Notes: generated from the sequence alone by a model not told the origin. Shown: positions 13,855 through 15,366, numbered from the stretch's first letter. The stretch: 20,560 bases of DNA from Nanobdellota archaeon (GCA_021813435.1 JAKAKR010000002.1:1-20560); one strand, 5' to 3'. Numbers and translations: made by a program.

Positions 13855-13938
13855 ACACCCGCGCCTTTTATAAAAAGTCGCGTCAAAAATGAATGTAAAC
13901 GCTTGCGCGTTTAGCATTCCCCTGTTTTACTCTTTAAA

Positions 13939-14060
13939 TGGGAATGCTGGGATTCGAACCCAGATCAACCGGTATCTTCTGGCGTATAGTCATCGCCTTT
14001 TGGGCTCAGCGCTCCAGTCAGCTGGAGCCGGTTATTCTAGCCAGGTTATACTACATTCCC
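13939..14060 (-). tRNA. intron-containing tRNA, most likely tRNA-Trp(CCA); 48-nt intron at the canonical 37/38 position (13974-14021)
   Basis: Read on the minus strand: acceptor GGGAATG/CATTCCC (7 bp) with discriminator A; U8, A14, G18G19 and A21 in place; T-arm CTGGG-TTCGAAT-CCCAG; anticodon stem ACCGG/CCGGT; loop CTCCAG|intron|A, giving anticodon CCA at 14025-14023. CCA is not encoded. The TATA box ttttataaa lies about 29 nt upstream. Weak points: the D-stem is poor (G.U, U-A, A.A, U.G), and the bulge-helix-bulge is relaxed (central helix 3 of 4 bp). Confidence 0.75.
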
Positions 14061-14084
14061 GTTCTCTTGCAGAATCGGCAAGTA

Positions 14085-14093
14085 TTTATAAAA
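14085..14093 (-). promoter_or_regulatory. TATA box for the tRNA gene
   Basis: tttataaaa (minus sense ttttataaa) is centred about 29 nt upstream of the tRNA 5' end at 14060. This is the standard archaeal promoter geometry. Confidence 0.6.
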
Positions 14094-14166
14094 GTATTGT
14101 TGCATGCGATTCACTGACACAAAAACTATATAAACCGGTATGCATCTCTTTTTATCGTCGTAAAAC

Positions 14167-15366
14167 ATGAAATCATCTTCCCCGGCATTTCTGCGCGCAA
14201 TCGTTCTTGCGTCAGCAATAGGTGGATATGCCTTATTCAGTTCACCTGCTGCTCCTGCGCCTGTTCTGCCCAAGGCCATTGTTGCGCAGGACACAATCCT
14301 TCTTATTGTAAGCACCCCTCCGACAGGCAAAAAGAAATATCCGACGGGAAATCTTGAGGGAAAAGTCATCGACGGGTTCTATAAGAATTATTTTGGCGTT
14401 TCAGGACGGATTGGCGACTCGCTCTATGTTGATTTTGATGCGCGGATGGACCAACTCTGGCTTGCAAAATCACGCCGGTCCCATAGAAATCCTATTGTTA
14501 AGCGATTCTGGAATACGATAGGGCGAAAGGCGTATCTGGATGATACTGCACAGATGTCTATTGATGAATACCTTGCAGTCATTGATACTGTGCGCTCTCA
14601 TGTCATTTCCAGTATTGATTGGTCACAAGTCGGACAATTGCTGGAGCTTGATTCGACGAGGGTTCACGCCCTGCAGGGCTATGCCTCGCGGATAACCGCA
14701 GCGCATCTCTTGTCCTATCAAATGACTGAATTATTCCCCTCGAACGATAAAAAGGATCCTGCAATGCCGAATAATAGGGATGTCCTTGATTTTATACTCC
14801 GCGCGCGTGGGCGCTCATTCATTGAATTCATCCCTGCATTAGGGGACACCTGTCTCTCATTCGGTGCTGGGCAGATGACTTCATATGCGCTCTCTGCTGA
14901 CTCTTCTACTGCGGTAAAGGCATCACTCATCAATCTTGCACTTCCCCGATCATACCAACTGCCTTCGCATGTGTATCAGCTTCGTGGAGATGATCATACC
15001 AAAGCAATGCTCCTCTTGTCAATATATAATATTGGACTGCTGCTCAAAGAATCGACTGCTGCAGAACTAACTACTCTTGAGGGTGTGTGGAAAGATGAGA
15101 AGAACATCGCAAAATACATCTCCACAGCGCACCATCATGAATTGCGCGCGATTGCAGGGATGAAAAACTGGCTAAAAAGGCGTGGAAAAAACCAGTACGA
15201 GCGTTATTGCTCTAAATCGCTTGCAGCATACGCGAGAAGTACACTCAAAAACCTCGAATCATTGCAGCCTGTAACGCAGGTGCTTCTTGCAAGAGAATCA
15301 TCATACCACCATAATACCCGCGGGTATCAGAATCATAACGATAGGAATATCGGCGTAACAAACTGA
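14167..15366 (+). CDS. secreted hypothetical protein (399 aa) with a possible lysozyme-like / lytic-transglycosylase-like core
   Basis: N-terminal signal-like segment MKSSSPAFLRAIVLASAIGGYALFSSPAAPAP. ATG start with tatataaa about 35 nt upstream. A weak motif triad is described in the findings. Otherwise no family is recognised. Confidence 0.65.
   Translation: MKSSSPAFLRAIVLASAIGGYALFSSPAAPAPVLPKAIVAQDTILLIVSTPPTGKKKYPTGNLEGKVIDGFYKNYFGVSGRIGDSLYVDFDARMDQLWLAKSRRSHRNPIVKRFWNTIGRKAYLDDTAQMSIDEYLAVIDTVRSHVISSIDWSQVGQLLELDSTRVHALQGYASRITAAHLLSYQMTELFPSNDKKDPAMPNNRDVLDFILRARGRSFIEFIPALGDTCLSFGAGQMTSYALSADSSTAVKASLINLALPRSYQLPSHVYQLRGDDHTKAMLLLSIYNIGLLLKESTAAELTTLEGVWKDEKNIAKYISTAHHHELRAIAGMKNWLKRRGKNQYERYCSKSLAAYARSTLKNLESLQPVTQVLLARESSYHHNTRGYQNHNDRNIGVTN

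Follow-up and report, generated by a model that had tools for sequence, protein, structure and literature searches.

The tRNA-Trp gene and its surroundings

The window, i.e., the whole stretch of 20,560 nt that we have analyzed (Nanobdellota archaeon, GCA_021813435.1 JAKAKR010000002.1:1-20560), encodes RFC, TrmB, an Obg-like GTPase and a class I aminoacyl-tRNA synthetase, as would fit an archaeon, and carries an intron-bearing tRNA-Trp gene on its minus strand (Table 1). The Rfam tRNA model RF00005 matched positions 14060-13939 with 45.3 bits and a 52-nt insert within the anticodon loop. ARAGORN with introns allowed (-i) returned tRNA-Trp(cca) with the intron i(40,48), that is, starting at index 40 (index 1 being the tRNA 5' end) and 48 nt long. 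Both searches supported the anticodon and the intron position of the original prediction, which had described a tRNA-Trp with a 48-nt intron. The default ARAGORN run found no tRNA at window 13939-14060, and the Rfam search gave no C/D family match, even at E-values up to 10.

Table 1. Features of the tRNA-Trp locus (positions in the window; index counted from the tRNA 5' end)
Feature	Position	Strand	Basis
tRNA-Trp(CCA) gene including intron, 122 nt; mature tRNA, 74 nt	13939..14060	-	Rfam RF00005, ARAGORN -i
5' exon, index 1-39	14022..14060	-	sequence
Guide target GCUCCAG, tRNA positions 31-37, index 33-39	14022-14028	-	sequence
C34, index 36	14025	-	sequence
48-nt intron, canonical position 37/38	13974..14021	-	ARAGORN -i, sequence
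Leader CUGA, index 40-43; loop of the cis guide hairpin	14018..14021	-	relatives' leaders all differ
Guide CUGGAGC + G, index 44-51; 7 Watson-Crick pairs to positions 37-31	14010..14017	-	sequence, covariance model
G47, partner of C34	14014	-	sequence
D'-type box CUGA, index 52-55; G54, A55 are kink-turn 2n/1n	14006..14009	-	GA at +7/+8 in 35/35
Kink-turn C-stem hairpin GCC-CAAAA-GGC, index 56-66	13995..14005	-	family pair counts
C'-type box: bulge G67-A68-U69, tandem G70-A71, C72-U73-A74 (3b-5b)	13987..13994	-	family bulge counts
GCGAUGA of the original prediction, index 65-71	13990-13996	-	sequence
Variable 3' spacer, index 75-81	13980..13986	-	length, sequence unconserved
BHB 3' strand: GAAG (index 82-85) to positions 35-32, 3/4 pairs	13973..13979	-	relatives; H. 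volcanii geometry
3' exon, index 88-122	13939..13973	-	Rfam, sequence
A/T-rich TATA-like element TTTTATAAATA, ~25-30 nt upstream of tRNA position 1	14083..14093	-	read from sequence
Trailer hairpin followed by T run, terminator-like	13885..13913	-	sequence

Judged by its sequence, the TTTTATAAATA element may be the promoter of the tRNA-Trp gene. At the other end, the 3' trailer (13885-13935, minus strand) holds GGGGAATGCT, which nearly copies the 5' end of the tRNA, could pair with the 3' acceptor strand of the tRNA and accounts for a weak Rfam match to “permuted tmRNA” (20.6 bits). Downstream of it come the hairpin, capped by GCAA, and the T run. A 93-aa ORF runs antisense over the gene (13889-14170, plus strand). 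It is an annotated gene in one public assembly (L002 9723-10004; L numbers denote loci from public genomes) and is absent from the annotation of the other; the call is probably spurious and arose because the tRNA is unannotated.

Five independent assemblies of this organism carry the identical tRNA-Trp sequence; the assemblies in which it occurs include GCA_027374615.1, GCA_027369495.1 and GCA_027374575.1. The neighborhood is syntenic with loci from Candidatus Woesearchaeota or Nanobdellati MAGs: the Obg-like GTPase shares 62-63% identity with L042, L093 and L102, and a 427-aa and a 790-aa protein share 53% and 39% identity, respectively, with L098. The mature tRNA was closest, among the matches listed, to the same Woesearchaeota locus L098 (69/74 bases). 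Because of this synteny and tRNA similarity, the description of the genome as DPANN-like proved right, the genome being Woesearchaeota-like. Just beyond the left end of the window, a DDE transposase adjoins the RFC gene (L126/L127 11342-12082), and past it the assemblies of the organism diverge (L126/L127 11342-12082 vs. L128 from about 12500). In one of them a TrmB-family gene and GrpE-DnaK-DnaJ come next, in the other PadR, a serine recombinase and large unknown ORFs, which suggests a mobile insertion or strain variation.

We have also looked for the proteins of a C/D RNP. Fibrillarin, Nop5 and L7Ae were absent from ~40 kb of the source genome, including a 10-kb contig extension. A tblastn search with fibrillarin and L7Ae sequences, covering the collected loci and those ~40 kb, returned a single L7Ae homologue, in the Undinarchaeota locus L017 (1768-2106), and none in the genome of the window. 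The homologue is 61% identical to an A. fulgidus L7Ae sequence and lies 1.6 kb from a tRNA-Trp gene with a kink-turn intron.

Guide register and kink-turn across related introns

The elements that the original prediction had placed in the intron were checked base by base. Index 44-50 reads CTGGAGC and is perfectly reverse-complementary to index 33-39 (GCTCCAG), and CTGA (index 52-55) stands directly 3' of G51. The fifth nucleotide upstream of this CTGA is G47, which pairs with index 36 and thus with C34. GCGATGA (index 65-71, 6/7 match to RUGAUGA) and GAAG (index 82-85, 3/4 pairs with positions 32-35) were found as described. The guide begins 4 nt inside the intron, the CUGA box lies one nt past it, and the duplex is short, with 7 bp in the window and 5-7 bp in relatives. 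To estimate chance, 1,000,000 composition-matched shuffles of the 48-nt intron were generated. In 2.3% of them, C34 was covered by a complement of 6 nt or more; such a complement followed by GA in the N+5 register appeared in 0.175%, and complement, register GA and kink-turn partner together in 0.0018% (1.8e-5).

Relatives were collected through one exon-only pattern scan of species-representative genomes (GGCTCCAR, gap 30-60, ACC, T arm), which gave at least 120 loci. When a paired acceptor stem was required, 72 distinct intron-bearing archaeal tRNA-Trp precursors were retained among the matches listed, with three intron layouts. Type A, in which the anticodon-loop complement lies at the intron 5' end, comprised 35 distinct introns among the matches listed (the window and 34 species-representative genomes, mostly DPANN). 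A covariance model added L046 and L081, and L107 is a truncated example, giving about 37 introns in total. The titles of the type A genomes read Woesearchaeota, Nanoarchaeota, Nanoarchaeia, Nanobdellati, Undinarchaeota, Aenigmarchaeota, Parvarchaeota, Acidifodinimicrobium and plain “archaeon,” and a few read “uncultured Methanosarcinales,” with tRNA and neighbors that look woesearchaeal. The MAGs so labeled (L031, L046, L066, L091, L120) have a Woesearchaeota-like tRNA-Trp with a DPANN-type intron, L066 also having the Obg-like GTPase and 188-aa neighbors of the window, and their Methanosarcinales labels or bins look doubtful.

Type B (25 introns among the matches listed, from Hadarchaea, Bathyarchaeia, Thermoproteota and one Micrarchaeaceae) presents a CTGA-loop-GATGATGA unit first and CTGGAGC after it. 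The order in Hadarchaea, Bathyarchaeia and Thermoproteota is GGGTCTG, CTGA, loop, (G)GATGATGA, CCCA and CTGGAGCG (L006, L008, L010, L014, L026, L032, L035, L040, L049, L061, L063, L067, L069, L070, L073, L082, L087, L101, L105, L109, L112, L123, L125), and it resembles the 3' two-thirds of the haloarchaeal tRNA-Trp intron. At the expected box D site the sequence is inconsistent (GCTA, GAAG, GCGG, CGGA, AAGA, TTGA and others), and the spacing to the intron 3' end is variable. Type C (12 introns among the matches listed, e.g., Anstonellaceae and some Micrarchaeota) consists of plain hairpins without a complement of 5 nt or more. The module was absent from some DPANN tRNA-Trp introns (L051, L086, L089, L110, L122), and the other intron-bearing tRNAs in 0.9 Mb of loci held no comparable module. 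Six tRNA-Trp genes, mostly from Thermoproteota and Hadarchaea, have an apparent second intron in their 5' half (L025, L038, L052, L090, L100, L115), which explains the wrong anticodons that ARAGORN assigned to them (Ser, Arg, Leu, His, Pro, Asn).

Comparison of related introns had been set beforehand as a refutation test, and we have anchored the 35 type A introns on the base pairing with C34 for this purpose. Positions +7/+8 from the C34 partner were GA in 35/35 introns, so that the N+5 rule for C34 is valid in every member and the prediction withstood this test. Position +6 was T in 32/35, +1 was A in 35/35 and -1 was G in 34/35; positions +2 to +5 were variable, and the leader (1-14 nt), loop and spacer were mutually unalike. 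The box reads CTGA, ATGA or TTGA, rarely ACGA, CGGA or AAGA. The 3' spacer ranged from 2 to 33 nt (16 nt in the window), with no box downstream. L099, a Woesearchaeota locus with a DPANN-type intron, has an extra canonical ATGATGA near the 3' end, in this spacer, which may be a relic or an incipient second box.

A second CTGA, at the very start of the window intron (index 40-43), had also been pointed out. It is present, but no relative among the matches listed keeps it, so that it is not counted as a box, and its reading as box D, including in a circularized intron, was discarded.

In every type A member the box is followed by a short hairpin or loop, and this by (G/A)-A-U-G-A, which gives the kink-turn order hairpin stem, 3-nt bulge (G/A-A-U) and GA. 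The canonical-stem hairpin has 0-7 bp across type A, with 2-3 bp in most members and often a GNRA or UUCG loop. Across the family, 96% of the cells at the three hairpin-stem pairs were paired, by GC, CG, UA, AU and GU. In the bulge, L3 is U in 35/35 introns, L2 is A in 32/35 and L1 is G, A or U; GA follows the bulge U in every type A member, which is partly by construction of the parse. Tandem sheared G.A/A.G pairs are possible between the last GA of GATGA and the GA of NUGA. In the non-canonical helix, 3b.3n is mostly pyrimidine-U, and 4n-4b covaries (A-U in 10-11, U-A in 7 and C-G in 6 of the 35 introns). The resulting 23-24/35 Watson-Crick pairs, of three types, were reached by 0/5000 shuffles. 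When the introns were aligned with MAFFT (alignment A1), 87.4% of the cells at the four named pairs were paired vs. 53.3% after shuffling, and the covariation score was 0.506 vs. 0.120, with 0/500 shuffles as high; slid registers on this alignment gave at most 49% paired cells. The helices around both boxes covary in related tRNA-Trp introns. For these very short stems RNAalifold predicted no consensus pairs on the 35-sequence core alignment, so that the case for the hairpin rests on the pair counts.

The kink-turn of the window has the stem GCC/GGC and the bulge G-A-U. Its 4n-4b is U.C and its 3b.3n is C.U, which makes its non-canonical helix weaker than that of most relatives in the family register. 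The register first proposed for the window, on the first GA of GATGA, gives U.U, G-C and a kink-loop, and is also open to the window because its box is CUGA; the D'-type GA is identical in either register, hence the ruler is the same. As a family rule, this canonical C' register was rejected, with 1b not being G in 9/35 introns (the first G of GATGA is replaced in AATGA, TGTGA, TATGA and AGTGA) and 4b-4n lacking covariation. The downstream box is a relaxed C' box: a downstream (R)UGA is kept together with the register, but only the last UGA of GATGA is conserved family-wide. Set against RUGAUGA, which the window GCGAUGA matches at 6/7, the family keeps (A)UGA only, and the three bases after GA vary.

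We have found no second kink-turn, position-39 guide, terminal stem or box C upstream of the guide in the intron. This agrees with the half-mer reading of the 48-nt intron, which would thus be a natural “half-mer” and not a canonical two-sided euryarchaeal guide. A second kink-turn formed by the leader CUGA with the 3' AGAAGAU was set aside, as it needs a 2-nt bulge and is unconserved, and an H/ACA-like reading was dropped because neither a conserved ACA nor a pocket is present. The minimum-free-energy fold has a competing alternative hairpin (index 64-67 with 77-80).

Guide and kink-turn were combined in the covariance model R1, which was searched over 708 kb of loci and the window. All type A tRNA-Trp introns scored 20-38 bits, and two introns outside the training set scored 32.8 (L081) and 26.1 bits (L046). 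Elsewhere the scores were 18.2 bits or less, with the best outside match inside an RFC coding gene. R1 thus separates type A introns cleanly from the background in the 708 kb searched, and its sole match in the window was 13987-14017, with 35.6 bits.

Guide fold and splicing fold

In the guide pairing and in the bulge-helix-bulge (BHB) splicing fold, the anticodon-loop bases involved are the same, so that either one precludes the other. We have folded both conformers, and the competition that had been predicted between them is real. With the cloverleaf enforced, the guide conformer had -30.0 kcal/mol with the boxes held open and -31.9 kcal/mol when unconstrained within the arm, and the BHB conformer had -26.8 kcal/mol. 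The guide fold is thus predicted to be 3-5 kcal/mol more stable than the BHB in naked RNA. The isolated arm folded into the guide hairpin at -20.1 kcal/mol (z = -1.7).

The window intron has the 4-bp central helix and the two 3-nt bulges with splice sites of archaeal BHB introns. The central helix joins positions 32-35 to GAAG, with 3/4 pairs, and the bulges are A36-G37-c and a-u-A38, a geometry equal to that of the published H. volcanii hBHBh' drawing. The motif is relaxed because the outer helix has only 2-3 bp. In the splicing conformer, CCAG (index 79-82) would be able to pair with the guide CUGG. Across type A, the BHB 3' strand is GAAG in 21/35 introns and GGAG in 5/35. With GAAG instead of GGAG, C34 faces an A in most DPANN splicing folds; the central helix of H. 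volcanii has four pairs, whereas the window and the 21/35 relatives with GAAG have this mismatch. About half of type A can form an outer helix from intron nucleotide 2, using the leader and the guide start (e.g., TATTGG/CCAATA in L042 and TGTTGT/ACAACA in L102). Its covariation across type A was not above that of shuffles (mean 3.26 bp vs. 2.97 ± 0.15).

Interpretation and comparison with known guides

The guide module is a real conserved feature of these introns, as seen in its sequence, register, covariation and competing folds. Going by sequence features, we consider it fairly likely that the intron would act as a single-kink-turn (“half-mer”) box C/D-type methylation guide within pre-tRNA-Trp, and the module probably either descends from the euryarchaeal tRNA-Trp intron guide or gave rise to it. 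In such a guide, L7Ae would bind the intron kink-turn and recruit Nop5-fibrillarin, and fibrillarin would 2'-O-methylate C34 while the guide and the anticodon loop are paired. Within the precursor the reaction could take place in cis; alternatively, another precursor or the excised intron could act in trans, possibly via a Nop5-bridged pair of half-mers. The RNA would then refold to the BHB, the splicing endonuclease would cut it, and the exons would be ligated. That a natural DPANN guide with one kink-turn acts in cis to methylate C34 in the precursor that carries it, or works as a Nop5-bridged half-mer pair, is a more tentative proposal, which may well turn out wrong. The single kink-turn, the short duplex, the lack of a box C upstream and the weak non-canonical helix of the window are points against the guide reading.

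Some of these points lend themselves to the leading rival explanation, in which the module is an L7Ae-bound structural or timing element without methylation. The kink-turn would bind L7Ae and the 5' segment would mask the anticodon loop for folding, stability or splicing timing, for example by holding the precursor in a non-BHB state or by stabilizing the excised or circular intron. In its favor, there is one kink-turn only and the duplex is short, the two folds are mutually exclusive with the guide fold being the more stable, and L7Ae is reported to bind many kink-turn RNAs outside C/D RNPs. Masking leaves unexplained, however, that GA stands at exactly +7/+8 in 35/35 introns while the bases between are variable; this spacing is the fibrillarin ruler, and it falls on the very nucleotide whose intron-directed methylation is known from Euryarchaeota. 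We therefore hold this explanation to be unlikely.

A decaying, nonfunctional remnant of a two-sided C/D intron, with C, D and the second guide lost, appears improbable. The haloarchaeal intron does have the same internal kink-turn together with the parts missing in the window, and the module is wholly lost from some DPANN introns. Yet no variation is seen in the box bases, the bulge U and the register, and compensatory changes occur in the stems, across genomes labeled as several phyla (Woesearchaeota, Nanoarchaeota, Undinarchaeota, Aenigmarchaeota, Parvarchaeota). Flanking sequence is no longer alignable while the module was kept, which indicates purifying selection and not decay.

It is very improbable that the excised intron acts in trans on rRNA or another tRNA, with the tRNA-Trp match being secondary. 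tRNA-Trp introns are stable circles in several archaea, but the only conserved antisense element matches the tRNA-Trp anticodon loop, and the 3' spacer, the possible site of a second guide, varies from 2 to 33 nt without a downstream box. Chance resemblance in a short intron, to which the commonness of short motifs such as CTGA and GATGA might point, is refuted by the composite probability per intron given above and by the recurrence of the motif in 35+ independent species, and deserves practically no weight.

On the guide reading, the methylation guide encoded in the tRNA-Trp intron would not be confined to Euryarchaeota but reach into several DPANN phyla, stripped there to one kink-turn and a 5-7-bp guide; this reading also suggests that reduced-genome archaea keep the methylation of the tRNA-Trp wobble C under selection. 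If a single-kink-turn guide is indeed active, the two-motif architecture, which is held to be a requirement of archaeal C/D RNPs, would be dispensable in vivo, the 30-60-nt module would represent the C/D guide in its most reduced or else its most ancestral form, and it would at the same time serve as a conformational switch of the methylate-then-splice kind. With its core of ~30 nt, the module is a very small substrate for biochemical and structural studies. Annotators should note that this tRNA-Trp gene escapes default tRNA finders and that one public assembly has a probably spurious ORF over it.

Box C/D sRNAs in the euryarchaeal tRNA-Trp intron were reportedly described by Clouet d'Orval in 2001 and Singh in 2004, for Haloferax volcanii, Halobacterium and Pyrococcus (sR50). 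The archaeal tRNA-Trp intron has a median length of 65 nt and contains a nested box C/D sRNA. Experiments in H. volcanii have established that C34 and U39 are 2'-O-methylated under the direction of the intron, acting in trans or after its excision; the intron is dispensable for growth. The window shares with this guide the location in a tRNA-Trp(CCA) intron at 37/38, C34 at N+5 of a D-type box and a pairing that competes with the hBHBh' splicing fold. The euryarchaeal intron has 60-105 nt and is two-sided (C, D' guide for U39, D', C', D guide for C34, D, terminal stem), whereas the DPANN form has 48 nt in the window (30-60 nt in relatives), one kink-turn and one guide. The window intron does not have the two-sided C/D + C'/D' architecture with ~12-nt guides: it has neither a terminal stem nor a guide for position 39, which is C, and, unlike in the euryarchaeal guide, its 7-bp guide lies 4 nt past the 5' splice site and RUGAUGA has no conserved “UGA” tail.

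In the published alignment of the haloarchaeal intron, C and a D' guide (U39) are followed by CUGA, an 8-bp hairpin, GU, UGACGA, CCCUCUGGAGUU (C34), CCGA and the terminal stem (PMC2584109, Additional file 4). Its internal kink-turn (CUGA, 8-bp hairpin, GUU bulge, GA) is built like the DPANN one (box, hairpin, 3-nt bulge, GA), and the element order indicates that C34 is guided by the D guide. The analogy drawn in the original prediction therefore holds for the N+5 register on C34 but not for the guide used, which in Haloarchaea is D and not D'.

In S. solfataricus, the intron of tRNA-Trp is a stable circle of 65 nt, complementary to positions 34 and 39 and without consensus C/D boxes; a guide role has been suspected for it, with no box or kink-turn defined. 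It resembles the type B order of TACK and Hadarchaea (kink-loop, then CTGGAGC) and not the DPANN order. Within DPANN, Nanoarchaeum equitans has an active C/D system, with 27 C/D sRNAs expressed. Its tRNA-Met intron is a 66-nt C/D-like RNA with boxes C and D, and its other three introns are short, that of tRNA-Trp being reported as much shorter than that of tRNA-Met. Like the window, N. equitans thus has an intron-borne C/D-like RNA, but in tRNA-Met. Our full-text literature search returned nothing tying DPANN to C/D sRNAs or tRNA-Trp introns, and no natural half-mer guide was found described in the literature searched.

According to a review, the symmetric two-motif architecture of archaeal sRNPs is critical for site-specific catalysis in vitro, and the DPANN introns offer a natural test of whether archaeal C/D RNPs need two symmetric motifs. 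Half-mer C/D RNPs do assemble, and crystallization constructs of this kind have been crystallized with target RNA. The synthetic half-mers of P. furiosus and S. solfataricus have one kink-turn and one guide, like the window intron, and assemble with L7Ae, Nop5 and fibrillarin; they are laboratory constructs, whereas the window intron is natural.
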